Origin: Candidatus Binatia bacterium
GTDB taxonomy: Bacteria > Desulfobacterota > Binatia > UBA9968 > JAJDTQ01
Length of the DNA stretch: 64,000 nt
Assembly (NCBI GenBank): GCA_963666515.2
Contig: OY762897.2
Span: 1,254,370-1,318,369 of the forward strand
Direction: 5' to 3'
The position numbers were made by a program, and so were the translations under genes. This document shows, piece after piece, positions 5,693 through 59,195 of this stretch; within the stretch, counting starts at the first letter, position 1, and the number at the start of each line of letters is the position of its first letter. The notes beneath the pieces were generated by a model, which saw nothing but the letters and a program-made list of their open reading frames with translations, did not search any database and was not told the DNA's origin.

Positions 5693-6925
5693 TCACGAAG
5701 CCAGATGCCGCGACGCGGTCTGGCAGATGGTGTCGGCGATGCCCAGGGACGAGGTGGCGCCGGGGGAAGGGGCGTTGAGCACGTGCACGGCGCCCTCGGA
5801 CTCGGCGATGACGAAGTCGTCCACCAGCTTGCCGCTGGCCGACACGGCCTGGGCGCGCACCCCCGCGCCGCTGTACACCAGGTCGTCCGACTGGATGGCC
5901 GGAATCAGGCGCTGAAGCTCGCGCGTGAAGGCGCGCTTGTCGAAGGAGCGGCGCAGCTCCGGCAGCGAGGTCTTCCAGTGCTTCCGCGCCATGGCCCAGA
6001 AACCGCCGTAGGTGAAGACCTGGTACAGGTCCCGCAAGTTGACGTCGCTTTGCCGGTATCCCTGGCGCGCGAACGCCAGCACGGCGTTGGGGCCCACCTC
6101 TACCCGGCCGTGGACCGTGGGGGTGAAATGAACCCCGAGGAAGGGGAACTGGGGGTCGGGCACCGGGTAGACGAGCCCCTTGACCAGCCCCTGCTTGTCC
6201 GGCTTGAGGCGGTGGTACTCGCCACGGAACGGAACGATGCGCACCGGCTCGTCGATGCCGCCGCTCTGGCTTTCCGCGAAGCCCGGCGTCATGGCCGCCA
6301 CCCGGTCGACGAACAGACCCGCGCAGTTGATCAGCGTGCGCGTCTCCACCGCGTCGCGGGAGGTCTCGATGACGAACCCGGTTCCCGAGCGGGTCATGCC
6401 GGTGACCTCGCACGAGGTGCGGACGGCGCCGCCGGCCGCCTCGAACAGCCGCGCATAGGCTCGCGCCACGTCGCCGAAGTCGATGATGCCGGTGAACGGA
6501 GCGTGCAGCGCCTTGATTCCGGTGCAGTGGGGCTCGATCTCCCGCAGCTCCTCCGGGCCGATCATGCGCACACCCTCGACCCCGTTGGCCTCGGCGCGCC
6601 GGTTCAGCTCGTCCAGGCGCGGAAGTTCCTCCGGGCGGGTGGCGACGATGACCTTGCCGCAAAGGTCGTAGTGGATGCGGTGCTCGTCGCAGAACTCCAG
6701 CAGCGCCTTCTTCCCGGCCACGCAGGTGCGCGCCTTCACCGATCCCGGCCGGTAGTAGATGCCGGAGTGGAGCACGCCGCTGTTGTGGCCGGTCTGGTGC
6801 ATGCCCAGCTCCGGCTCCTTCTCCAGCAGCGCGCACCGCAGCCCCGGATGCTCCCGCGCCATGCGCATGGCCGTGGCCAATCCGACGATGCCGCCGCCGA
6901 TGATGGTGAGGTCGAACTTTTCCAT
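5693..6925 (-). CDS. lhgO: L-2-hydroxyglutarate oxidase/dehydrogenase (FAD-dependent, LhgO family)
   Basis: Start set at MEKFDLTIIGGGIVGLATA (FAD dinucleotide fold). HQTGHNSGVLHSGIYY motif present. The upstream 298 codons of the 708-aa ORF are antisense to uvrB and were discarded. Confidence 0.8.
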   Translation of the reverse strand: MEKFDLTIIGGGIVGLATAMRMAREHPGLRCALLEKEPELGMHQTGHNSGVLHSGIYYRPGSVKARTCVAGKKALLEFCDEHRIHYDLCGKVIVATRPEELPRLDELNRRAEANGVEGVRMIGPEELREIEPHCTGIKALHAPFTGIIDFGDVARAYARLFEAAGGAVRTSCEVTGMTRSGTGFVIETSRDAVETRTLINCAGLFVDRVAAMTPGFAESQSGGIDEPVRIVPFRGEYHRLKPDKQGLVKGLVYPVPDPQFPFLGVHFTPTVHGRVEVGPNAVLAFARQGYRQSDVNLRDLYQVFTYGGFWAMARKHWKTSLPELRRSFDKRAFTRELQRLIPAIQSDDLVYSGAGVRAQAVSASGKLVDDFVIAESEGAVHVLNAPSPGATSSLGIADTICQTASRHLAS

Positions 6926-7060
6926 GGGGACGAGAAGGGATGCCGCCGTGACATCGGTGGGCAACCGCGATACGGAACTTAACAGCTTCCGCGCGCGCGT
7001 GTCCAGGGAGCAGGAGTCGCCGTTTTGCACACCCACGGTCCGCGGTGTTATTCCTTTGAC

Positions 7061-12828: not shown

Positions 12829-13179
12829 ATGCGCTTCAGTGAGTTCGTGACGGATCAGGTATTTTCTCCGGTACTCATCGCAGCAGCGCTCCGCACTACC
12901 AAGTCGGAGATCGCGGGGACTCTGGGGCTGGGTAGAGACGCGTTCTCGCGGGCCTCACGTATCCGAGCGCGGAAGACACAGGTTCGCCTCCGCCAGATGT
13001 TGGAGATTCTCAACCGGGTCGAGGCCGAAACCGGCTCACCGCTGGCGGCCTATGCCTGGTTCCGCTCCGCGCCGCTGCCCGGCTTCGGCGGCGCCACCGC
13101 GGATTCATTGTTGCGCCAAGGCAAGGCTGATCAGGTGCACGCCCATCTGGATCGGATCATGGCGGGCGGATACGCCTGA
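12829..13179 (+). CDS. Xre-like/DUF2384 antitoxin (ParS/MbcA-type)
   Basis: 116 aa. C-terminal AYAWFRSAPLPGFGGATADSLLRQGKADQVHAHLDRIMAGGYA matches the DUF2384 antitoxin pattern. Lies 11 nt upstream of a RES-domain gene. Confidence 0.8.
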   Translation: MRFSEFVTDQVFSPVLIAAALRTTKSEIAGTLGLGRDAFSRASRIRARKTQVRLRQMLEILNRVEAETGSPLAAYAWFRSAPLPGFGGATADSLLRQGKADQVHAHLDRIMAGGYA

Positions 13180-13190
13180 CCCGTCGTCCC

Positions 13191-13694
13191 ATGCGGTTCC
13201 GATGGATCGTGTATCGAGCCCACAATCCCCAATGGTCCTGGACACCGTTGTCGGGCGAGGGTGCACAACGCCACGGAGGACGCTTCAACCGGCGCGGGAT
13301 CCCCGCGCTCTACACCTCTCTGGACCCCATGACGGCGATTCGTGAGGCACAGCCGCTGGGCCGTTCCCTGCAACCCATCACGCTGTGCGCCTACGAGGTC
13401 GATGCCCACCCGGTGTTCGACACGGGCGACAGCTCTGAACGAGCAGCGCTGAAGGTAGCCGATTCTGAACTCGCCCGTCCGGTCTGGGAAGCGGAAATGC
13501 TGGAAGGTCGCGTTCCTGCGTCACAGAGGCTTGCCGACCGTCTGATCGAAGCCGGCTACGTTGGGATGCTCGTCCGAAGCTTTGCCGCCGGGCCCGGTAT
13601 CGATGAACTGAATCTGGTGCTCTGGCGATGGGGCGACGACCGCCCCAGCCGTGTGACCCTGATTGACGATGAAGGACGCCTTGTGCGGAACTGA
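13191..13694 (+). CDS. RES-domain toxin (ParT/MbcT-type, NAD+-targeting family)
   Basis: 167 aa. YRAHNPQW...GGRFNRRGIPALYTSLDPMTAIREA, plus the characteristic size and pairing with a DUF2384 partner. Confidence 0.85.
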   Translation: MRFRWIVYRAHNPQWSWTPLSGEGAQRHGGRFNRRGIPALYTSLDPMTAIREAQPLGRSLQPITLCAYEVDAHPVFDTGDSSERAALKVADSELARPVWEAEMLEGRVPASQRLADRLIEAGYVGMLVRSFAAGPGIDELNLVLWRWGDDRPSRVTLIDDEGRLVRN

Positions 13695-33886: not shown

Positions 33887-35060
33887 CGCCGGTTCTCCGG
33901 ATCAGCGGCCGCTGGGGGTGATGCTGGTGGCCGGAGAGGCCTCGGGAGATGCCCGGGGAGCCGAGTTGGTGCGCGACCTGCGCCGGCGCGACCCGTCGGT
34001 GGAGTGCTTCGGCATGGGCGGCGCCAATCTCCGGGGCGCGGGCATGCGGGTGGTCCACGACATCGCGAGCGTGGCGAGCGTGGGCGTCGCGGAGATCTTC
34101 GGCAGCCTTCGCCACATCTGGCGGGCCTACCGGGCGTTGCGCCGGCTGCTCCTGGATGCGCGGCCGGCGTTGCTCATCCTGATCGACTTCCCGGAGTTCA
34201 ACATGCGGCTGGCGCGGATCGCGCGCCGCCACGGCATCACCGTCCTCTACTACATCAGCCCGCAGGTCTGGGCCTGGCGGTCGTACCGCATCCGGCGGAT
34301 CGCGTCGAGCGTGGACGCCATGGCGGTGGTCTTTCCCTTCGAGGCGGAACTCTACAGGGCCTTCGGCGTGGGCGCGGTGTCGTTCGTGGGACACCCCCTC
34401 GTGGACGTAGTGAGCGCCGGCCGGGACCGGGACGCGAGTCTCCGCTCCGCGGGACTGGATCGCACGAAGCTTACGGTGGCGATCATGCCCGGGAGCCGGA
34501 GGAGGGAGGTCGCTTCGCTCCTCGATCCCATGCTCGAAGCGGCCCGGGGTCTGGCCCGGGAGCGGGAGACGCAGTTCCTGCTCATCCGCGCCAGCACCAT
34601 CGAGCGCGGCGAGCTGGAGCGGGCGGTCGCGGGATCGCCCGTCACCCTCCGCATCGTCGACGGCGATACCTACGACATGCTGGCGGCCGCGGACCTCGTC
34701 TGGGTGGCCTCCGGGACGGCGACGCTGGAGGCCGGGCTGCTCGGCAAACCCATGGTGATCACCTATCGCCTGTCGCCGCTGAGCTACTGGCTCGGGCGCC
34801 TGCTGGTCAGGGTGGACCACATCGGCATGGTCAACATCATCGCCGGCGAGCGGGTGGTCCCGGAGCTGATCCAGAACGAGGTCACGGCCGAGCGCATCCT
34901 GTCCGAGACCCGGCGCATGCTGCAACCGGAGGTGCGGCGCGCGGTGGTGCGGAAACTGGAGGCGGTGCGGCAGCGCCTGGGTCCGTCCGGGGCTCCGGGA
35001 CGCGTGGCCGACATGGCCATGGCGCTGCTGGCGCAGACCCGTGTGCGGGCGACGCCATGA
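33870..35060 (+). CDS. lpxB: Lipid-A-disaccharide synthase LpxB
   Basis: MLVAGEASGD, LIDFPEFNMRLA and YYISPQVWAWR motifs. Confidence 0.9.
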   Translation: MNRDTSAGSPDQRPLGVMLVAGEASGDARGAELVRDLRRRDPSVECFGMGGANLRGAGMRVVHDIASVASVGVAEIFGSLRHIWRAYRALRRLLLDARPALLILIDFPEFNMRLARIARRHGITVLYYISPQVWAWRSYRIRRIASSVDAMAVVFPFEAELYRAFGVGAVSFVGHPLVDVVSAGRDRDASLRSAGLDRTKLTVAIMPGSRRREVASLLDPMLEAARGLARERETQFLLIRASTIERGELERAVAGSPVTLRIVDGDTYDMLAAADLVWVASGTATLEAGLLGKPMVITYRLSPLSYWLGRLLVRVDHIGMVNIIAGERVVPELIQNEVTAERILSETRRMLQPEVRRAVVRKLEAVRQRLGPSGAPGRVADMAMALLAQTRVRATP

Positions 35061-36790
35061 AGGTCTACCTGCGCCTGCTCCGGTACCTGCGGCCCTACGT
35101 GTGGCCGCACTTCTGCGGCGCCGTCCTCTGCATGCTCCTGTTCAGCGCCACCACCGCGATGATGCCCTTCCTGGTCCGTGACGCGGTGGACGAGGTGTTC
35201 GTGAAGCAGGACCCCGGGGTGCTGGGGGTCATCATCCTCATGGTCGTGGTCGTGTTCAGCTCCCGCGGCGTCTGCAACTTCGGCCAGCTCTATCTCATGG
35301 AACACGTCGGTCAGCGGATCATCCGCGATCTGCGTTCGGCCCTGTGCGAGAAGCTCCAGTGGCAATCGCTCGCCTACGTCCACCGCCACCCCACCGGCAC
35401 GCTGCTTTCCAGGGTTGCCAGCGACGTGGCGCTGGTGCGGACCGCGCTCACCACCTCGGTGGCCTCGGTGGCCCGCAACTGCACTTCGGTGGCGGCGCTG
35501 GCCGCGGTGGCCTTCTACATGGACTGGGTGCTGGCGTGCATCGCCTTCGTGGCCTTTCCCGGCTCGGTGCTTCCGGTCAGGCGCCTCACCCACCGCATCC
35601 GAAGGGCCACCACGAGGAGCCAGGTGAGCACCGGCACGCTGACCACGATCCTCCAGGAGAGCCTCCAGGGCAGCTCCATCGTCAAGGCCTTCGGCATGGA
35701 GCGTTACGAGCTGGAGCGGTTCAACCGGGAGAACCGGGAAATCCTGCGCCACACCATGAGGGCCGGCCGCGCCCGGGCGATCATGCCCTCGGCCATGGAA
35801 TGGCTGGCCGGTCTGGGCGCCGCCGGAGTGTTGTGGTACGGCGGCAACGCGGTCCTGGACGGCGGGCGCACCGCGGGCGAGTTCTTCGCCTTTCTCACCG
35901 CCATGTTCATGGTCTACGAGCCGGTCAAGCACCTGAGCCGGGCGCTGCCGGAAATCTACCAGGGCGTCGCCGGAGGAGACCGGATCTTCGAGGTGCTGGA
36001 CGCGCCGCTGGACGTCACGGACGCTCCGGACGCCGTGCCGGCCGCGGCCTTCTCGGACCGGATCGCGTTCCGGGACGTCCGCTTCGGCTACCGTGAGGAT
36101 ACGGTGCTGGCCGGCATCGACCTGGAGATCCGGCGCGGCGAGACGGTGGCGCTGGTGGGCATGAGCGGCGCCGGCAAGACCACCCTCTCGGCGCTGCTGC
36201 CGAGGTTCTACGACGTGACCTCGGGCCGCATCACCCTGGACGGAGTGGATATCCGCAAGCTGACCCTGGAGTCCCTGCGGCGCCAGATCGGCATCGTGAC
36301 GCAGCACACCTTCCTCTTCAACGACAGCGTGAGGGCCAACATCGCCTACGGCGATCCGGCCAAGGGCATGGACGACGTCGTCACGGCCGCCAGGGCCGCC
36401 AACGCCCACGACTTCATCGTGGAGCTGCCGTCCGGGTACGACACGGTGGTGGGAGAGCTGGGACTGGAGCTTTCCGGCGGCCAGCGCCAGCGGATCGCCA
36501 TCGCCCGGGCGGTGCTCAAGAACGCTCCCATCCTGGTCCTCGACGAAGCCACCTCCGCTCTCGACTCGGAGTCGGAGCGGCTGGTGCAGGATGCCCTCGA
36601 CGGCCTCATGAAGAACCGCACGAGCCTGGTCATCGCCCATCGCCTGTCCACCATCCGCAACGCCACGCGCATCGTCGTCCTGTCCAGGGGGACGGTCGTG
36701 GAACAGGGGACGCACCAGGACCTGCTGGCCCGGCGGAAGGAGTACAGCCGTCTCTACAACCTCCAGGCGGCCGGCGCGCCGCCCGGATAG
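35057..36790 (+). CDS. msbA: Lipid A export ABC transporter MsbA (permease-ATPase fusion)
   Basis: ATGA overlap with lpxB. Six-TM N-terminal domain. Walker A GMSGAGKTT, signature LSGGQRQRIAIARA, Walker B ILVLDEATSALD. Confidence 0.85.
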   Translation: MKVYLRLLRYLRPYVWPHFCGAVLCMLLFSATTAMMPFLVRDAVDEVFVKQDPGVLGVIILMVVVVFSSRGVCNFGQLYLMEHVGQRIIRDLRSALCEKLQWQSLAYVHRHPTGTLLSRVASDVALVRTALTTSVASVARNCTSVAALAAVAFYMDWVLACIAFVAFPGSVLPVRRLTHRIRRATTRSQVSTGTLTTILQESLQGSSIVKAFGMERYELERFNRENREILRHTMRAGRARAIMPSAMEWLAGLGAAGVLWYGGNAVLDGGRTAGEFFAFLTAMFMVYEPVKHLSRALPEIYQGVAGGDRIFEVLDAPLDVTDAPDAVPAAAFSDRIAFRDVRFGYREDTVLAGIDLEIRRGETVALVGMSGAGKTTLSALLPRFYDVTSGRITLDGVDIRKLTLESLRRQIGIVTQHTFLFNDSVRANIAYGDPAKGMDDVVTAARAANAHDFIVELPSGYDTVVGELGLELSGGQRQRIAIARAVLKNAPILVLDEATSALDSESERLVQDALDGLMKNRTSLVIAHRLSTIRNATRIVVLSRGTVVEQGTHQDLLARRKEYSRLYNLQAAGAPPG

Positions 36791-36817
36791 CCTCCACGTC
36801 GACGGAGCCCTGAGCCC

Positions 36818-38095
36818 GTGTTCATCCTCTACAACGCGCTCCTTCACGCGGGGCTGCTCCTGGGACTGCTGGCGTGGCCCCTGGGCTTCTTCCTGCGCCG
36901 TCATCCCTACCGGGGGCTGCGGGAGCGCTTCACGGCGTACCCGCCGGATCTCACGGCGCGCCTTGCCGGGTCCCGTCCCATCTGGATTCACGCCGCTTCC
37001 GTGGGCGAAGTGCGATCCGCCGCTCCGCTGGTGCGGCGCATGAGGATGAAGTGGCCGGAGCGCAAGCTCCTGGTGTCGACGGTGACCGTCACCGGACGCC
37101 AGACCGCTCGCGAAGCGCTGCCCGACGTCGACGCCGTGACCTATCTGCCGCTCGATCTGCCGTGGCTCGTTTCCCGAAGTCTCCGCCGGCTCGACCCCGA
37201 GGTCGTCATTCTGCTGGAAACGGAGATCTGGCCGAACTTCATCCGGGCCGCGGGCCGGCTGCGGATTCCGACATTGGTTCTGAGCGGCCGCCTGTCTCCC
37301 CGCGGCGCGCGCACGTACGAGCGTTTCCGGGCGCTTTTCAGGCCGGTGCTGGATGAGGTGGCAGGCTTCGGAATGCAGGACCGCGAGAACGCCGACCGCC
37401 TGCTGCGTCTCGGCGTGGACCCGCTCAAGGTGGCCGTCACCGGCTCCCTGAAGCATGCCGCGGCGGAAGCAGGTGCGCTCCCGCAAGTCCCGGTTTCCGG
37501 CAACCAACGCGGTCCCGTCGTGGTGGCGGGGAGCACCCATCGCGGCGAGGAGGAGGTCCTGCTGGAGGTTCTCCCCGAGTTGCGCCGCCGGTTTCCGGGC
37601 CTTCTCATGGTTCTCGCCCCAAGGCATCCGGAGCGGTTCGGTGAGGTGGAGCGGTTGCTCCGGCAAGGAAAGCTGGATTACCGCAAGCAGAGCGCGACGG
37701 GCGGAGCGCAATCGCCTGACTGTGGAGTCCTGCTGCTGGACACCCTGGGTGACTTGCCGCAGTACTACGGCTGGGCCGACGCGGCCTTCGTGGGCGGCAG
37801 CCTGGCGCCCGCCGGGGGGCACAACCTCATGGAGCCGGCGCGCTGGGGCACGCCCGTGCTTTTCGGGCCGCATCACGCCAACGTCGCCGAGGCCGCGCGG
37901 GAGCTGTTGCGGCAGGGCGGCGGCGTCGAGGTCCGGGACGGACAGGATCTCCTCAGGGAGGTCACGGACCTCCTGTCGGACCGTGCGCGGGCGGCCGCCA
38001 TGGGGCGTTGCGCCCGGGCGGTGGCCGAGACCGACCGGGAGGTGCTGTCGCGCAGCATGAGCCTGATCTACCGGCAGCTCCGGGATCGGCCGTGA
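36818..38095 (+). CDS. waaA: 3-deoxy-D-manno-octulosonic acid (Kdo) transferase WaaA/KdtA
   Basis: [11 protein letters not shown] and [16 protein letters not shown] motifs. N-terminal membrane anchor. Confidence 0.9.
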
Positions 38096-52392: not shown

Positions 52393-52854
52393 ATGCGGCG
52401 GGAGAAGCGCTATGATTTCCACATGACCATGATGCTCTCCTTCGCCACGGCTGCCGACACGCACAATCTCCATACCCGCCAATGCGCAACGCGGCGCAAG
52501 CCGCTCTGTCATACGCAAAGTACTATCCGTCAGCGGAACGACGGCGACTTGAAGGTCCAGTCCGTGCCCTTCAGCAAGGCGAAGCTCTATCATCGGCCCA
52601 ACTGGTTCACCTTACACGCCTTCCGCAAGACCAGCGATCCGCACGACGTCATCAGCACGGATCGGAGGCAGAATCCGACACTCCTCACTGGCTCGCGCTG
52701 GACCTTCTATGCGACCTTCGCCAGCCTGCTGAGGGCGGCAGTGGTATTCGGCCTCCGTGACATCAAGCAGCTCCGTCAGCAGGTCCCTTCGCACGGTTAT
52801 CACCGTGTGCGGATTGAACGGAATCCTGCGTCCGGCATGCTAGGGACAATCTGA
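52393..52854 (+). CDS. Hypothetical ORF, coding status uncertain (C-terminus faintly resembles tyrosine-recombinase box II)
   Basis: 153-aa ORF in lower-GC DNA that ends 2 nt before the HNH gene. The segment SRWTFYATFASLLRAAVVFGLRDIKQL...HGYHRV loosely resembles HxLRHTFAS-LL-aG-....I..LLGH....Y.H. Confidence 0.25.
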   Translation: MRREKRYDFHMTMMLSFATAADTHNLHTRQCATRRKPLCHTQSTIRQRNDGDLKVQSVPFSKAKLYHRPNWFTLHAFRKTSDPHDVISTDRRQNPTLLTGSRWTFYATFASLLRAAVVFGLRDIKQLRQQVPSHGYHRVRIERNPASGMLGTI

Positions 52855-52856
52855 CG

Positions 52857-53837
52857 ATGACAGATCTTCCCGCCGCCACCGTTGCCGCAGCGGATTTCTA
52901 CGACAAGTACTACGACGCCGGCGCTGAGCCCATCTTCCTTGAGCCTGGCATGAAGTTGATGCTGGGTAGCGCCGAGCGTCCCCGGCATTGCCGCTTCTGC
53001 GGGAAGGACGAGCCTGCGGTCACCTTTAAGGACGAAGCGCACGCGCTGCCGGCTGCATTCGGTAATACAGGCCTGTTCAGCAACTACGAATGCGATGTCT
53101 GCAATCATGTCTTTGGTGAGGGCATCGAGAACCATCTCGGTAACTGGACCAAGCCGATGCGCACCCTGTCCCGGATCAAGGGACGAAGTGGCGTGCCCAC
53201 GATCAAGAAGCCCGGCCCTGAAGAGGGCTGGCGTGTCGAGTATTCCGCTACGGGCTTTCAACTGAGGGAATATGAAAACGAGCCGTTTTTTGAGATAGAT
53301 AAGGAGGCCAAGCAACTCCGGTTCGAGCTACACCGGGACACCTACATTCCGGTAGCGGCGCTCAAAGGCCTAGTCAAAATCGGCCTGACCTTGATTCCTG
53401 ACGTAGAGACTCAGCACTTCCGCGAAACCTATATTTGGATTCGCGATACCGACCACTCGCGCAATTTCGTCGCCGAATTCCCGATATTCCGCACCTTCAT
53501 CCCCGGGCCGATGCCGAATGATTTGATTGTGCTTGTGCTCATGCGGCGGCGAGCCGGCATCGACACGGTCCCCTACGCCTTCTTCACCTTCGCCTATGGA
53601 AACGAAGTATTGCAGGTTTTCTTGCCATCGACCTCCCAGGACAAGTGTATTGATGGCAAGCCCCTGTCTCTCCCAGCCTTTCCGACGCCCGGTGCCCCTG
53701 ATCCGGCCCGCCACGGCCAGCCGCGTGTAATCGTCGAGCATCTGACCGGTCGGCAGCCGGTCAAAGGGGAGAAGGTGCCGGTTGTATTCCACTTCGACAA
53801 TATCGTGAAAACGAAGTCCAAAAACGCTTTGGACTGA
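52857..53837 (+). CDS. HNH_5-like endonuclease-domain protein with uncharacterised C-terminal region
   Basis: 326 aa. CRFCGK...EAHALPAAFGN...YECDVCNHVFG matches the CxxC / (E)H-x-(I/L)P-x-x-(L/F)G / CxxCN pattern of HNH_5-type nucleases as I remember it. The remaining roughly 230 aa match no family I recognise. Confidence 0.6.
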   Translation: MTDLPAATVAAADFYDKYYDAGAEPIFLEPGMKLMLGSAERPRHCRFCGKDEPAVTFKDEAHALPAAFGNTGLFSNYECDVCNHVFGEGIENHLGNWTKPMRTLSRIKGRSGVPTIKKPGPEEGWRVEYSATGFQLREYENEPFFEIDKEAKQLRFELHRDTYIPVAALKGLVKIGLTLIPDVETQHFRETYIWIRDTDHSRNFVAEFPIFRTFIPGPMPNDLIVLVLMRRRAGIDTVPYAFFTFAYGNEVLQVFLPSTSQDKCIDGKPLSLPAFPTPGAPDPARHGQPRVIVEHLTGRQPVKGEKVPVVFHFDNIVKTKSKNALD

Positions 53838-53969: not shown

Positions 53970-54005
53970 GAAGTTCGGGTTAATACCGCCACTAACCTGA
54001 ACTTC
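53970..54005. repeat. 13-bp stem hairpin between the HNH gene and the IS
   Basis: gaagttcgggtta (53970-53982) pairs with taacctgaacttc (53993-54005), with one G-T position. The loop is 10 nt. Confidence 0.6.
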
Positions 54006-54065
54006 GAGCGACGAGATATACTAACTTATTGATTTGGAAGGGGAAAGGGGCGAAGGGGGTATGGG

Positions 54066-55805
54066 TTACTGAGTACGTTCGAGGCGCACCCCCAAGAGTT
54101 GGAAGATTTGAGCCTGGAGGGGGGTGGGGCGGGTAATGATGTCGAAGGGTTGAGAGTTGGCGAGTTGGGGAGCGACGACGCTGTTTATGGCGATGGTGGC
54201 CAGGTCGTCGAGCAGGGAGCGGAAGCTGTGCACGGGCAGGCCGGTGGCTGTGATCTTGCGGTCGGCCTTGTCCTTGGCGGCGGGGGAGACCTGAGCGGGG
54301 GCGACCACGGAGGGGCGCAGGGCTTCAGCGGCTTGTGGATCGTGGTCGTCGAACAGCAGGGGCTTGAGGCGTTGGCGCATGTGCCACTCGACATAGTAGG
54401 CGAGCATGCACAGGAAGACGTGTGCACGGACCCTGCGGGCGGCGTAGTGGAAGATGGGGCGTACCTTGAGGTCCACGGTCTTGTAGCTGCGGAAGGCTCG
54501 TTCCACCACACTCAGACTCTTGTAGGCGCCCACCGTCTCCTGAGTATTCAACACCGCCGTGGGTACGCTGGTGCGGATGACGTAGAAGCCGTCAAGGGCG
54601 GCTTCCTGAGCGATGGCTTCGGCACGGCGTTCATAGGTCAAGACGCCGTCCTCCGAGACTGCGGTCTCGAAGTGCTTGCCGACCTTGTGCTGGCTCAGGA
54701 CCTTGCCGAGGCGCTGCTGGATGCGGCCGGGGTCGGTCAAGCGGCGCTTCTCTCGGGTGGTGGCGGCGACGATGCGGTCGAGTTCCCGTTCGGTGGCCTG
54801 GAGCAAGGCTTCGCGCTTGCGCGCCCGCTCTTGGGCCAGCAGGGGATTGCGGCACACGATCAGGCGTTCTGCGGGATAGTCCTGGGATGTGATCTCGGCC
54901 AAGTGGCGCTGGTCGAACAGCGAGGGTTGCAAAGCCCCGTCTTCGGCCAGCCTGCGGATGGCCGGTGCGCGCAAGGCGCTGATCCAGTCCAACCCGGCGG
55001 GTTGCACTTCCTCGCGGATGCGCGCTGTGGTGAGCATGCCCCGGTCCCCCACCAGCACCACTCGGGAAAGGGCGAAGCGTCGGCGCAGCTTGTCGATCTG
55101 GGTGCTCAGGGTGGCGGGGTCTGCGGTGTGGCCCTCGAACACCTCCACCGCTACGGGACAGCCCTCTCGGTTGCACAACAGTCCGAAGACGATCTGAAGC
55201 TTGCCCCGTTTGCCGTCGCGGGAGTAGCCGTGCCGGGCCAGAGGACAGCGTCGGCCCTCGACGTAGCTTGAGGTCACGTCGTAGAGCACCAGGGAGCCTT
55301 CCTCAAGATGGCGCTTGGCCAGACGCTTCTCGATGGCCCCTTGGCGTTCCAACAGCCAGTCCATGGCCGCGTACAGGTCATCCTCGTTGCTGTCGTCCAG
55401 ACCGAGGGTTGAGGCCAGCGAATCCCGAGCGGTTTCCCGAGCCAGGCCGCGGGCGGTGGCCAGCTTCGAGCCCGGGGCCAGGACACGGGCCACCACCAGG
55501 GCGAGGACGCGGTCCCGTTCGGGCGAGGGTTGGGGTGAGATGAGGCGGTCCAATTCCAGCTTGCGCACGGTGCCCAGGGTAGCGGCCACATGACCGTGGG
55601 GCAGGGAGCGGACGATGTCGAAGGTTTGTTCCGGGGCCGCCAGCGGCTCGTCCTTGAGCACCCGACGCAGGGCTTCTACCCTGGCCTGGGGCCATTTGGA
55701 GAGGTTGGCGAGGGTGCGGCTTTTGACTTTGCCGTTGTGGCGGTAGCTTTCCCGCAGCAGGATGGCCGGGGGCGAGTTGCGGTTGGGGACGGCGGTTACG
55801 TACAT
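54066..55805 (-). CDS. IS1634 family (IS4-like DDE) transposase
   Basis: Start set at MYVTAVPNRNSPPAILLRESYRHNGKVKSRTLANLSKW. C-terminal YKSLSVVERAFRSYKTVDLKVRPIFHYAARRVRAHVFLCMLAYY is the IS4-superfamily YREK region. Confidence 0.85.
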   Translation of the reverse strand: MYVTAVPNRNSPPAILLRESYRHNGKVKSRTLANLSKWPQARVEALRRVLKDEPLAAPEQTFDIVRSLPHGHVAATLGTVRKLELDRLISPQPSPERDRVLALVVARVLAPGSKLATARGLARETARDSLASTLGLDDSNEDDLYAAMDWLLERQGAIEKRLAKRHLEEGSLVLYDVTSSYVEGRRCPLARHGYSRDGKRGKLQIVFGLLCNREGCPVAVEVFEGHTADPATLSTQIDKLRRRFALSRVVLVGDRGMLTTARIREEVQPAGLDWISALRAPAIRRLAEDGALQPSLFDQRHLAEITSQDYPAERLIVCRNPLLAQERARKREALLQATERELDRIVAATTREKRRLTDPGRIQQRLGKVLSQHKVGKHFETAVSEDGVLTYERRAEAIAQEAALDGFYVIRTSVPTAVLNTQETVGAYKSLSVVERAFRSYKTVDLKVRPIFHYAARRVRAHVFLCMLAYYVEWHMRQRLKPLLFDDHDPQAAEALRPSVVAPAQVSPAAKDKADRKITATGLPVHSFRSLLDDLATIAINSVVAPQLANSQPFDIITRPTPLQAQIFQLLGVRLERTQ

Positions 55806-55812
55806 GCCTACT

Positions 55813-55841
55813 ATAATAGGCTGCAATCAGAACTTTGTCAA
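55813..55841 (-). promoter_or_regulatory. Near-consensus promoter placing the transposase ATG at the predicted transcription start (leaderless)
   Basis: On the minus strand: TTGACA (55841-55836), 17-nt spacer, TATTAT (55818-55813), then 7 nt to the ATG at 55805. No Shine-Dalgarno. Confidence 0.45.
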
Positions 55842-56018
55842 TAAATAAAACAACAAATGACTCACGCATCCCGCATTTACATGCCTACATATAAACCCCC
55901 TTTCTACCTCGTGCCTGTGATTCCCTTGCCTTTTCAATCACTTGGCTCCGCAGCTCGCGCTTGGTAAACAGGGAAGTTCAGTCTAACGGCCATCCCAACG
56001 CGGTGGCGTTGAATGTCT

Positions 56019-58070
56019 TCAGACAGATTGTTCGAGAGCAAACTCCGGGGCACCCGTAGCCGCGCAGGCAAGCACCGCGACGGCAATCTCATCGCGTTCG
56101 TGCGGGCTGATTGCAGCAATTCGTCCCATGGTGTCGCCCATGAAGGCAGCGGCCGGGGATGCCGCATCCACGTCGGGATTGTAGCGAGTGCGCCACGCTG
56201 CCACGCCGGACTGATTGTACTCGTGGGATACCGCCAAGATGTGAAGAAAATCGGTCTCCATGGCTGCCTCGGGGAACTGGGCCGCCAACTGTTTCCAACT
56301 ATCGGGACTCGCCGACTCTTGCCAATACCTGCAGGCGTTCCACGCCCAAGCGTGTGGAGGACACTCCGGTGTGCTGTTCAGCATAAGCCATTGCGAATAG
56401 AAGCCAGCCAACGGATCACCTCTCCGGGTTTCCTCTCTAATAAGGTCCGTCGGTGCAACACCCCCTTGGGCCTTGGCGATTCGAGCGCGACTGAACTCGC
56501 CGCCGAGACGGCCGCGACGAAAAAGTTCGGTCAGGGCGGCGGGGGGAGGCACCGACGAGTGACCGCCATCAGTTGTGGCCGGAACCTCATTCTCGCGGCC
56601 TGCGTCGGAGGTATCGTCGTCCGAGGCATATTGCAGGCCGCTACGCATCCGGTCGAGAAATTCCCTGGCTTTCAGGCTTTCAGGTTCTTTTTCCAGGAAT
56701 TCAACCAGCAACGCCTTGGCGTCTCCCGGGCGGTCGCGCAAGACCAGTAGTCGGGCCATGGCTACCCGCGAGTGCTCGTTGCCTGGATCTCTATCCATCG
56801 CTTGCTGCAGCCAGTACCCTGCCTCGTCCCAATAGTACTCTCCTCGGCGGATCAGCAGACGCCCCAGTTCCACCCGGGCATGCAAGTCATTCGGAAACAG
56901 CCGTAGAATCTCGCGCAACGTCGATTCGTGCGCGTCGCGGTGGCCCTGGGCGCGAAACCAGTCCGCCCAAAGCATCCAGCAATAGAAGTTCGCTGGCTCC
57001 CAGACAAGGGCTCGTTCAATCATGACTCCAAATCGAACCATCTCGGCCTGACCGAGCTTATGATGTTCCAGCAGGCTGCTACCGAGGTTGTGCAGAGTAC
57101 GGACGAAAAAATGGCTTATGCCGGTGGCCTCGGCATAAACGTGGTTCTGCTCTAACAGCTCGAACAGGCGCCTGGCCAGAGTTTCCGGTTGATGGCTTGA
57201 GTTAAGGATTTCTGCCTTCAGACCGGCCCACTGTTCCTGTGATGCTGGCGCCGGCGTTGGCGTCTGGGTGCGTTTGGAATGCTGAGGCTTGGTCACCACT
57301 CCCGATCGCAAGACGTCAACCAACTCGCTTGCCAGTTGTTCCCGCGTAATGTGTTCCTTCGTATGTACTACGAAGCCGTCCAGTGCCCCCGTCAGGATAC
57401 GGTCCCAATATTGGGGGCCACGTGGATAGTGCCCGCGCAGGGCGGCAAAATGGCGATTGAAGAAGGTGTGCGCGGCGCCGACCTCGTGGCAAATCTGGAC
57501 GGCGTGGCGCAACAGCGCCTGCAGCATCAGCGTCTGGTTGGCCTGCGCGTTGTGTTGATTGGGCAATAATCGTAGCCCAGCCAGGGACACGGTCAAATAC
57601 TCGGGTCGAGGATCTGTGGCGAGCCGCAACCACATGGCTGTGTGGCCGGTATCAGGCTGTCCGCGGGTCAGTAACCGGAAACACTCCAGCGCCGGGTCGC
57701 GCTCCGGGGCCAGCCGCAACGGCAACAACCAGCGGAGCCAAGTGTCAATATCCGCTCGGATCTGATGTCGGGCCTCCGGCAAATCAAGCACTTGGAGAGC
57801 AATCAAGGCATCGCCGATTCGCTTGCCATAGACCGGAAAACCGAGACGCTTCACCTGCACCGGATAGTGCCCGCGCATGTCGAGCAGCCAGGATAGGAGC
57901 GCCTTGTCAAGCTCGGCACGCTCGCTGGCGAGATGCTGCGGGAAGGCCTGATACAACAAATCCGGCACGTCGAGGCGTAAGCTGGAAGCGACGCCCGCGC
58001 GTCCGCTGAATAGGTCGGCGACAGCCTGTTCGGGGTCACCGCGAAACGCCTCGAACCAGCGATCGATCAT
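56019..58070 (-). CDS. 683-aa TPR-containing protein of unknown function (gene B of a two-gene operon)
   Basis: Long uninterrupted ORF in lower-GC DNA. Its start ATG overlaps the stop of the upstream ORF (ATGA at 58067-58070). Residues about 345-475 show TPR-like repeats (WADWFRAQGHRDAHESTLREILRLFPND; ARVELGRLLIRRGEYYWDEAGYWLQQAMDRDPGN; SRVAMARLLVLRDRPGDAKALLVEFLEKEPES). The N-terminal 340 aa and C-terminal 200 aa are unassigned. Confidence 0.7.
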   Translation of the reverse strand: MIDRWFEAFRGDPEQAVADLFSGRAGVASSLRLDVPDLLYQAFPQHLASERAELDKALLSWLLDMRGHYPVQVKRLGFPVYGKRIGDALIALQVLDLPEARHQIRADIDTWLRWLLPLRLAPERDPALECFRLLTRGQPDTGHTAMWLRLATDPRPEYLTVSLAGLRLLPNQHNAQANQTLMLQALLRHAVQICHEVGAAHTFFNRHFAALRGHYPRGPQYWDRILTGALDGFVVHTKEHITREQLASELVDVLRSGVVTKPQHSKRTQTPTPAPASQEQWAGLKAEILNSSHQPETLARRLFELLEQNHVYAEATGISHFFVRTLHNLGSSLLEHHKLGQAEMVRFGVMIERALVWEPANFYCWMLWADWFRAQGHRDAHESTLREILRLFPNDLHARVELGRLLIRRGEYYWDEAGYWLQQAMDRDPGNEHSRVAMARLLVLRDRPGDAKALLVEFLEKEPESLKAREFLDRMRSGLQYASDDDTSDAGRENEVPATTDGGHSSVPPPAALTELFRRGRLGGEFSRARIAKAQGGVAPTDLIREETRRGDPLAGFYSQWLMLNSTPECPPHAWAWNACRYWQESASPDSWKQLAAQFPEAAMETDFLHILAVSHEYNQSGVAAWRTRYNPDVDAASPAAAFMGDTMGRIAAISPHERDEIAVAVLACAATGAPEFALEQSV

Positions 58071-59128
58071 AGCCGCCCCTCAAGAAATTCGCCAAAATGC
58101 TCGCGTCCGCACTCCACTTGCAACGTAATAAGGTGCAGGTCGCGCGCCTCACGCAGTTGTTCATCAGTCAGGCGGCGGGGGTCCCTGATCCAACCCAGCC
58201 GCCACAAGTGCTCGCGCTGGTAGTCGATTCGGCAATGGACCAGTTCGGCGGTAAGCGTGTCGGCCGAGTCGGGCGACAGGTGCACGGTAGCGCCGTATGG
58301 ATGCTCCCGCGGGACCGGAAAGAAGAACTCGTGCATGCCATTGTCGAGGACGGTGGGCATTGCGCAGGCGGCGGACCCTTCCCGATGGGCCGAAAAGACC
58401 TCCGCGAGGGGGTAGCGCATCAACGCGACTGCGAGCGGGGCACCACCGGCGAGCCCGTAGTGCCCAAGCCCGAGCCGGTCGCGGAGCGCGTGGGGCCAAT
58501 CTACGTCGTCCGCTTCTTGTTTCACCTCGTCATAGAAGGCGACAAAGGCGGGCCGGGCGTCCCGGCGCTGATTCCATGTATCGAAGAATATCTGGACTAC
58601 CCGGAGCGCATCGGAAACGCCGTTGTCCGCCTGTTGCAGCAGTCCGTCCAAATCCTCGAGTAACAGGCCGCTGGTCTGTAGTGGTTGGGTGAGGGCCTCG
58701 ATACGGACCACGGACTGGTTGTCGGAGAGATCGTCGAGCCAAGCGTCCTTATTGATGTCGAGAAAAGCATCGGGCAAGTTGAGGCTTGAGACATTGTAGT
58801 ACCGCTCCAAATGCAGCCGATTGGTTTCGCTCCAGTCCTGCCACTGAATCCCATCGGCACCGGCTGTCACTTCTGCAAGCAGGTCATCAAACCGTTGCCA
58901 CCGGGCAACGCCTGCCCGCTCGTCAAAGCGGCAATTGTCAGCCACGGCAGCCACGACGGTGTCGGTGGAGCGGCTGTGATGCTGTAGGAAGTCCTTGTGA
59001 ATAGTCACCCTTCCGTTCCTGTTGGCAACATCTTCAAGCGTTACCGGCAAATATACGCCCGCACATTGCGTAGTGAAAGGGACATCCTGGCTTTGGTTTG
59101 ACAGGAACACGGACCAAAAACAATTCAA
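58067..59128 (-). CDS. 353-aa protein of unknown family (gene A of a two-gene operon)
   Basis: ORF with a TTG as the most upstream possible start. No domain recognised by eye. Contains VVQIFFD(183)...FVAFYDE(201)VK(203), a pattern compatible with a PD-(D/E)xK core. Translationally coupled to gene B. Confidence 0.6.
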   Translation of the reverse strand: MNCFWSVFLSNQSQDVPFTTQCAGVYLPVTLEDVANRNGRVTIHKDFLQHHSRSTDTVVAAVADNCRFDERAGVARWQRFDDLLAEVTAGADGIQWQDWSETNRLHLERYYNVSSLNLPDAFLDINKDAWLDDLSDNQSVVRIEALTQPLQTSGLLLEDLDGLLQQADNGVSDALRVVQIFFDTWNQRRDARPAFVAFYDEVKQEADDVDWPHALRDRLGLGHYGLAGGAPLAVALMRYPLAEVFSAHREGSAACAMPTVLDNGMHEFFFPVPREHPYGATVHLSPDSADTLTAELVHCRIDYQREHLWRLGWIRDPRRLTDEQLREARDLHLITLQVECGREHFGEFLEGRL

Positions 59129-59195
59129 AACGGCATTCGGGTCTCCTTGCCACGGTGCCCAAGTGAGGTGGTCATGGTGTAACGCTATCGGGCGC

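Follow-up and report, generated by a model that had tools for sequence, protein, structure and literature searches.

Do two long open reading frames (ORFs) lying on the minus strand of a Candidatus Binatia genome form a working unit, and what might such a unit do? The ORFs occupy positions 56019-59128 of a 64,000-nucleotide stretch of contig OY762897.2 (positions 1,254,370 to 1,318,369 of the forward strand), referred to here as the window. A sequence-only reading had described them as a translationally coupled operon without known function, made of gene A and a larger gene B with tetratricopeptide repeats (TPRs), and had suggested a part in phage defence or toxin regulation. Both ORFs were present at the positions that it gave. 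We found with high confidence that A and B together are a real, obligately paired, co-evolving and horizontally exchanged module of undescribed families, and that nothing structurally related to A could be detected in the PDB or BFVD. As its most likely role, we tentatively assign to the pair that of a conflict system working by a sensor and an effector (abortive infection).

An obligate, translationally coupled and co-evolving gene pair

The two genes and their junction were placed as follows.

58067-59008, minus strand: gene A, 313 amino acids (aa), GTG start; predicted soluble, enzyme-like protein, its start set by alignment to 315-aa homologues
59009-59128, minus strand: 5' extension of the mechanical TTG ORF of A; part of the leader, probably untranslated, missing from homologues
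58067-58070, minus strand: ATGA start/stop overlap; junction sequence, conserved among homologous loci
56019-58070, minus strand: gene B, 683 aa, ATG start; predicted soluble, all-helical scaffold

The length of 353 aa first given for gene A, counted from a TTG at 59128, belonged to the mechanical ORF only. Homologues of A were about 315 aa long; their first residues, MT(I/T)H/Y, aligned with the GTG at 59008, and the closest relative (L001) carries an ATG there. A was therefore assigned 313 aa at 58067-59008. In the alignment with L001, segment 59009-59128 was shared as nucleotide sequence only. The protein P0121 was 100% identical to gene B.

The stop/start overlap held up on inspection. The minus-strand junction reads ...GAGGGGCGGCT-ATGA-TCGATC, with the ATG of B at 58070-58068 and the TGA of A at 58069-58067, giving an overlap of 4 bp. 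A Shine-Dalgarno (SD)-like GAGGGG was located 6-11 nt upstream of the ATG of B and was formed by the last codons of A (GAG GGG CGG), so the conserved C-terminal E-G-R codons of A are the source of the SD-like GAGGG just before the start of B.

Genomes and metagenomes yielded 43 related loci, which we scanned with hidden Markov models of A and B. In 32 of the 33 loci that extended far enough, A was immediately followed by a homologue of B; the exception, L004, was a copy of A without B and was itself truncated. A 4-bp ATGA/GTGA overlap was found at 26 of these 33 junctions, in backgrounds of 44-68% G+C content (GC). Other junctions had an 8-bp overlap (three loci), a 1-bp overlap (one locus) or a 27-nt gap (two loci). 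Over 24 loci, the pairwise identities of A closely tracked those of B (r = 0.96, Mantel 0/5000), and the first searches with the two proteins returned similar numbers of homologues, 342 for A and 321 for B.

The linkage extended to remote relatives. In L011, the gene for an A homologue of 26% identity overlaps by 8 bp with the gene that follows it, whose 838-aa product is homologous to the N-terminal domain, middle region and TPRs of B (E = 2e-20 over 507 aa). In P0407, an A-like domain and B-like helices and TPRs were joined in a single polypeptide, a natural fusion. Both genes were under purifying selection, with ratios of non-synonymous to synonymous substitution rates (dN/dS) of 0.18-0.32 for A and 0.20-0.36 for B; one closely related pair of B sequences reached 0.53. 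The conserved overlap, the co-occurrence, the correlated identities, the fusion and the persistence of coupling in distant pairs bear out the proposal of a translationally coupled two-gene unit, and homologues of A and B were tied to each other even at 26% identity. The pairing is obligate, translationally coupled and co-evolving, and the genes are real and under selection.

The pair moves horizontally as one unit

When compared by blastn with L001, a Candidatus Binatia metagenome-assembled genome (MAG) and the closest genome copy, the window was similar (87.8% identity) over 55983-59150 only, and the flanks were unrelated. The cassette thus measured about 3.2 kb and consisted of the two genes, a leader of about 140 nt and a short trailer. 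Its non-coding parts and the adjoining insertion sequence (IS) were the following.

59009-59150, minus strand: cassette leader, up to the upstream end of nucleotide similarity to L001
59050-59077, minus strand: sigma-70-like promoter TTCACT-16-TATATT within the leader, both hexamers conserved in the L001 copy
55988-56018, minus strand: cassette trailer, with a hairpin CAACGC-N4-GCGTTG at 55996-56011
53997-55982: IS of the IS1634 family, 1986 bp, encoding its transposase on the minus strand (54066-55826); inverted terminal repeats CTGAACTTC/GAAGTTCAG, target duplication of 5 bp (CTAAC)

One sign of exchange came from L006 and L041, in which the pair occupies the same chromosomal site. Synonymous divergence (dS) was 0.36-0.65 in the flanks and 1.2-1.4 in A-B, and dN/dS was similar, indicating that the cassette had been replaced by a divergent allele. 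Faster evolution of the pair was rejected as the cause of this divergence because dS too, and not dN alone, was threefold above that of the flanks. At this site (L006 10001-10640, L041 9079-10001) the gene call of L006 fuses A to an IlvC N-terminal fragment of about 190 aa (KARI_N); the cassette therefore adjoins a truncated ilvC at a conserved position. A genome scan with a single protein gave 4 loci. Hosts of the close subfamily included Binatia, Spirochaetia, Pseudomonadales and other Gammaproteobacteria MAGs, and three loci came from sponge metagenomes, L014 from Petrosia ficiformis and L015/L016 from Aplysina aerophoba (PMC5099237). The GC of the pair was below that of its flanks in high-GC hosts and above it in low-GC hosts. 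These comparisons showed that A-B moves horizontally as one unit and is replaced at a fixed site.

The pair had been called compositionally foreign, and its base composition agreed with this: GC was 0.60-0.62 and third-codon-position GC (GC3) 0.68-0.70, below the values of the host genes (0.66-0.72 and 0.85-0.95, respectively). The neighbouring HNH gene alone had a lower composition than the pair. An HNH nuclease gene and an IS had also been named as neighbours, and we identified them as an HNH_5 gene (52857-53837, plus strand) and the IS1634-family element.

The IS was inserted 32 nt past the stop codon of B. The cassette trailer was broken by it at 55987/55983 and resumed for about 14 nt at 53980-53996; after removal of the IS in silico, similarity to L001 extended only about 14 nt further. 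The element carries its own target-site duplication (CTAAC) and is missing from the near-identical relative P0241, indicating a separate, later insertion; for the same two reasons it was rejected as the vehicle of transfer. A 13-nt sequence outside the left end of the IS (53970-53982) was 92% complementary to the IS terminus at 53993-54005; it could be what remains of a single inverted repeat, or a preferred target similar to the IS end. No attC-like site, terminal repeat, recombinase or integrase was found at the ends of the cassette, where the 6-bp hairpin was the only structure and no repeats were common to the loci. The pair was classed neither as an integron cassette nor as an IS or transposon passenger.

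One alternative is that A-B is cargo of an unrecognised mobile element and serves that element, not the host, in a function such as anti-defence, maintenance or transfer. The composition foreign to the host is consistent with this, as are the IS and HNH gene in the window and the transposases, ImmA/IrrE and T5orf172 genes near the pair in L042 and L043. However, the unit shared among loci comprised two genes only, with no integrase, recombinase or terminal repeats alongside; the IS of the window arrived later and is absent from the near-identical relative; and the pair was missing from viral and plasmid collections. We regard cargo of this kind as very improbable.

Several other observations were made in the same neighbourhood. 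The HNH_5 endonuclease-like protein matched phrog_26663, a family of unknown function (E = 5.5e-47). Its gene is preceded by an orphan 153-aa ORF, both genes of this block (52393-53837, plus strand) have low GC3, and in the IS-less relative P0241 the block directly adjoins B. The HNH_5 gene was not tied to the pair elsewhere. It was rejected as a third component because it was absent beside the pair in other loci; L040 does have an HNH_2 gene, 1.3 kb downstream of B, but that gene is unrelated. Farther away in the window, a type II toxin-antitoxin (TA) pair was found at 12829-13694 on the plus strand, with an Xre/MbcA/ParS-type antitoxin (12829-13179) and a RES-domain toxin (13191-13694); at a GC3 of 0.69-0.74 it was compositionally as foreign as the A-B cassette. 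Two ORFs without a Pfam match, 34784-37876 (minus strand, 1030 aa) and 5705-6982 (plus strand, 425 aa), stood out from the rest of the genome by an unusually low GC3 of 0.72 and 0.67; they may be wrong-frame products of crude gene calling or further foreign genes. No tRNA was found in the window, and a search of Rfam over 52-60 kb gave a single sub-threshold match and nothing above threshold.

Predicted properties of proteins A and B

The sequence-only reading had recognised no family for gene A, and our searches agreed with it: A went unmatched in Pfam, NCBIfam, PADLOC and PHROGs. The A domain of 47 diverse members likewise had no Pfam, PADLOC or NCBIfam match, the PHROG result being null for the A of the window. 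An exhaustive HMMER search showed a superfamily of 569 clusters at 50% identity, 457 of which were found at E <= 1e-10, with lengths mostly of 300-340 aa. Where members were named by their source, the name was 'hypothetical protein'. Another homologue search with A recovered the close subfamily only. The parts of A that the analysis distinguished were these.

aa ~1-90: N-terminal helical part
aa ~95-300: alpha/beta core
58697-58708, minus strand: motif V-R102-I-E104 in beta-strand 1 of the core; R102 and E104 nearly invariant in the superfamily
58460-58501, minus strand: motif D-W171-PHAL-R176-DRL-G180-L181-G-H183, the top-conserved block of the superfamily
58343-58357, minus strand: motif P218-T219-V-L-D222 within a long ordered loop
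58130-58237, minus strand: C-terminal motifs, from HCRIDY (aa 258-263, Y263 nearly invariant) to R289-D-L-H292-L

An AlphaFold2 (AF2) model of A built from 105 diverse sequences reached a predicted local distance difference test score (pLDDT) of 96.2 and a predicted template modelling score (pTM) of 0.92, and all five models scored at least 95.8. It superseded a poor run with 45 close homologues only (pLDDT 61), for which Foldseek was uninformative. In the model, the helical part at the N-terminus leads into an alpha/beta core with some five strands. A structural neighbour was defined as a solved or viral predicted structure with a Foldseek E < 1e-3 or a TM score > 0.5. The best values obtained were E = 3.9 with TM <= 0.19 in the PDB, and E = 1.1 with TM 0.21 in BFVD, making a new fold of A a candidate claim on comparison of the predicted model with these two collections. 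Profiles of A, both close and diverse, gave noise only against PDB sequences. In hhalign, the A profile aligned with a RES toxin at a probability of 0.1%, and no relation was seen between A and the N-terminal domain of B.

About 26 positions were invariant or nearly so across the A superfamily, many of them polar. Some 14 of the polar residues fell in this class: N25, R36, R102, E104, N146, R176, H183, Y199, T219, D222, E255, Y263, R289 and H292. Such a pattern of conserved polar residues appears typical of an enzyme. The earlier description of A as a small putative effector can be kept to the extent that these residues suggest it.

Protein B was divided into six parts.

57366-58070, minus strand: N-terminal domain, aa 1-235; helical; dN/dS 0.17-0.29
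57186-57365, minus strand: variable linker 1, aa 236-295; indel-rich; dN/dS 0.30-0.75
56637-57185, minus strand: 'mid' helical segment (aa 296-345) with TPR array and capping helix (aa 346-478); conserved; contains the Pfam TPRs
56535-56636, minus strand: acidic variable linker 2, aa 479-512; K+R 1, D+E 7; dN/dS up to 0.9
56235-56534, minus strand: C-terminal domain, aa 513-612; GDPLAGFYSQWLM...PECPPHAWAWNACR.WQ; Trp-rich; dN/dS 0.11-0.19
56022-56234, minus strand: C-terminal tail, aa 613-683; weakly conserved

The TPR-like part had been reported as the only recognisable portion of B, as indeed it was. TPR_14 (aa 365-405, 27.8 bits against a Pfam cut-off of 23.5) and TPR_19 (aa 415-464, 35.2 bits against 25) both exceeded the Pfam gathering thresholds, so the central region qualifies B as a TPR repeat protein; a full-length profile of B found TPR proteins only among PDB sequences. 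The N-terminal domain was kept even in relatives of 26% identity, belonged to no known family and gave noise when its profile was compared with PDB sequences. The C-terminal domain was confined to the close subfamily and did not align in the distant partner from L011. An enrichment of the C-terminal region in Trp, His and Cys had been claimed; the Trp part of this stands, with 6 Trp in aa 513-683, but His (4) and Cys (3) were not notable, and His was more common in the N-terminal domain.

The number of TPRs was variable. The unit (H)SRVELARLLIRRGEDHWDEAERWLRE..NP.N (SRVELARLL...NP.N) occurred in 1-8 tandem copies among homologues. Two copies were present in the B of the window and in 111 of 143 proteins, and the length of B followed copy number (r = 0.93). 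Units within expanded arrays were nearly identical to each other, indicating that the expansions were recent and independent.

Neither protein contained a P-loop ([AG]xxxxGK[ST] Walker A motif), and no NACHT, NB-ARC, STAND or other NTPase model of Pfam or NCBIfam matched. The exclusion of a STAND/AVAST-type NTPase by the sequence-only reading is thereby upheld. The absence of a signal peptide or transmembrane (TM) segment was also reproduced; the peak 19-residue hydropathy was only 1.27 in A and 1.51 in B, and no TM segment was therefore predicted for either.

The best PDB sequence match of the B TPRs was PA4667 of Pseudomonas aeruginosa (7rqf/8sxe, E = 1e-14), which we take to be LbcA, the adaptor of the CtpA protease. 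LbcA, a periplasmic lipoprotein, serves as a TPR scaffold: it binds a separate enzyme and activates it. By contrast, B has no signal peptide and A is not an S41 peptidase, and the likeness to PA4667 was limited to generic TPR repeats (B aa 382-468). The match nevertheless raises the alternative of a non-immune, niche-adaptive enzyme-adaptor pair, in which B would recruit substrates to A, or activate it, for modification of proteins or metabolites, either in the manner of LbcA-CtpA or as a 'eukaryote-like' TPR factor of sponge symbionts. TPR proteins are enriched in sponge symbionts, and some loci of the close subfamily came from sponge metagenomes; several loci lay amid metabolic genes. Against this stand the patchy cross-phylum distribution without synteny, the replacement of the cassette at a fixed site, the lack of a signal peptide or TM segment, the failure of A to match any peptidase or other enzyme family, and the clear defence genes in half of the genome contexts. 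An enzyme-adaptor pair is unlikely in our estimate.

Genomic context and the probable role of the pair

Twelve independent genome contexts were graded by the defence genes within about 10 kb of the pair. Clear defence genes were present in six of the 12, as a raw count. L005 held a type I restriction-modification system, HipAB, PIN/Phd, AAA_14/DUF4143 and DUF3644; L009, a PLD-SNF2 helicase with an Eco57I-type methyltransferase and AAA_14/DUF4143; L042, a 1658-aa PNP-nSTAND protein, AAA_13 and a transposase; and L043, a large helicase, an Eco57I methyltransferase, T5orf172, a helix-turn-helix-peptidase M78 protein and a nuclease. In L002 the pair was adjoined by PDC-M68A/B, and in L003 a type I restriction endonuclease was found. 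The 1658-aa protein of L042 (4336-9312, minus strand) lies about 0.7 kb upstream of A-B, combines PNP_UDP_1 (nucleoside phosphorylase-like) with an nSTAND NTPase and resembles an Avs-type defence protein. Three further contexts were weak: the window (HNH_5 and IS), L001 (SNF2/ZorD-like helicase) and L040 (Phd antitoxin and HNH_2). On this raw count of six, the association of A-B with defence genes is suggestive and not established.

A number of results weigh against a role in defence. The remaining three contexts (L006/L041, L007 and L008) were of a housekeeping kind. The flanks in a census of 115 ORFs from 13 loci (ten metagenomic loci and L001-L003) were mostly metabolic and included no recurrent partner. 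Neither A nor B matched known defence, toxin or nuclease models. The TPR region, at a dN/dS of 0.19-0.41, showed no gross excess of non-synonymous change. IMG/VR yielded one 33-residue fragment only, and no match was found in INPHARED phages or in PLSDB plasmids, the latter also queried with two distant members. Finally, the enzyme status of A is putative, read from its conservation pattern. Thus, the phage-defence or toxin-regulator role first proposed is supported only in part: the six contexts with defence genes favour it, and the three weak and three housekeeping contexts, the metabolic census and the lack of a defence model speak against it.

Further results of these searches concern the neighbours and the reference collections. 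Conflict genes were scattered through the flank census (Uma2 three times, ABC-3C CTD10 twice), and no third gene recurred beside A-B. An ORF of more than 3384 aa directly after B in L007 (12951-20948), with weak LapA/Calx-beta-type matches, is probably an adhesin unrelated to the pair. PADLOC-DB v2.0 left A, B and the A domain of 47 diverse relatives unmatched, and the pair matched no PHROG profile.

The toxin-antitoxin genes in some contexts bear on another alternative, a selfish addiction module with A as the putative toxin and B as its large proteinaceous antitoxin. Such a module would persist and spread by post-segregational killing and not by benefit to the host. A-B is compact, coupled and mobile, as are type II TA and two-gene abortive-infection modules; those modules occur in defence islands, and clear defence genes lay near A-B in six of the 12 contexts. 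It often adjoins TA genes (HipAB and PIN/Phd in L005, Phd in L040), and the sole copy of A without B (L004) was truncated. The order and sizes of the genes, however, are atypical of type II TA, where the antitoxin is normally small, DNA-binding and encoded upstream; the partner of A is a multi-domain repeat protein of 683 aa encoded downstream. With three conserved domains and variable repeats, B exceeds what neutralisation needs. In addition, the pair was not on plasmids, and no toxin or antitoxin family of Pfam or NCBIfam matched. An addiction module is therefore quite unlikely, and we rank it below an enzyme-adaptor pair.

A sensor-effector conflict system remains our preferred reading, and its workings may be pictured as follows. 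A self-contained mobile cassette with its own promoter-like site would supply A and B, which would most likely assemble into a cytoplasmic heteromeric complex with A as the catalytic subunit (the enzymatic effector) and B as a regulatory or sensor scaffold. The N-terminal helical domain of B, conserved with A across the superfamily, would hold A, and the TPR array, resized by tandem duplication, may take a protein or peptide as its ligand. Until the TPRs bound a trigger derived from a phage or mobile element, A would be kept inactive by B; A, once triggered, would modify or destroy an essential target of the cell or the invader. What we infer from the patterns described above is that A and B bind each other, that A has enzymatic activity, that the TPRs sense a ligand and that the pair serves in defence. 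A bolder version, in which A founds a new enzyme fold and superfamily and forms with its obligate B a new NTPase-free sensor-effector immune system, exchanged across phyla including sponge-microbiome bacteria and retuned by TPR duplication, seems to us rather doubtful.

Known systems were compared with the pair proposed here. The anti-phage operon BcTir/Tpr of Bacillus cereus also has two genes and one large protein with a C-terminal TPR array. Its products act as a complex, as those of A and B probably do. In BcTir/Tpr the number of TPR helices is reported to tune enzymatic activity (bioRxiv 10.1101/2023.05.26.542521). TPR copy number varies among homologues of B too. However, no TIR or NADase family matched A or B. 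The enzyme of BcTir/Tpr resides in the N-terminus of the TPR protein itself. In the present pair it is A, a separate protein, that the conserved polar residues mark as the putative enzyme, and the N-terminal domain of B is an orphan unrelated to that N-terminus. With STAND/Avs (AVAST) and NLR-like proteins carrying TPR sensor arrays, the proposed A-B would have in common the logic of a sensor plus an effector. Near-identical TPR units of variable copy number are typical of NLR sensor domains, and in L042 the pair adjoins a STAND-type protein. Unlike these proteins, A-B has no NTPase, and its effector would be a separate polypeptide. Since the defining domains (TIR/NADase, P-loop NTPase) are absent and the likeness to PA4667 is one of generic TPRs, A-B was filed under no known family, and no description of the A-B family was found in the literature.

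That A-B is a widespread, uncharacterised two-gene module with clear signs of horizontal turnover is well supported; a part in defence is plausible. Sponge microbiomes have been reported to be enriched in defence functions (PMC5099237, PMC5649159). The spread across phyla, the three sponge-metagenome loci and the exchange of one allele for another at a fixed site document concrete gene flow between distant lineages. Large (569 clusters), entirely unannotated and modelled with high confidence, the A family is a good structural and biochemical target whatever its function. If the defence reading is correct, A-B would be an undescribed immune or conflict module with a minimal, NTPase-free form of TPR-based sensing, and the natural variants with 1-8 repeats would suit tests of specificity. 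An effector without a relative in sequence or structure could then reveal a new enzymatic way to stop phage or to kill infected cells.

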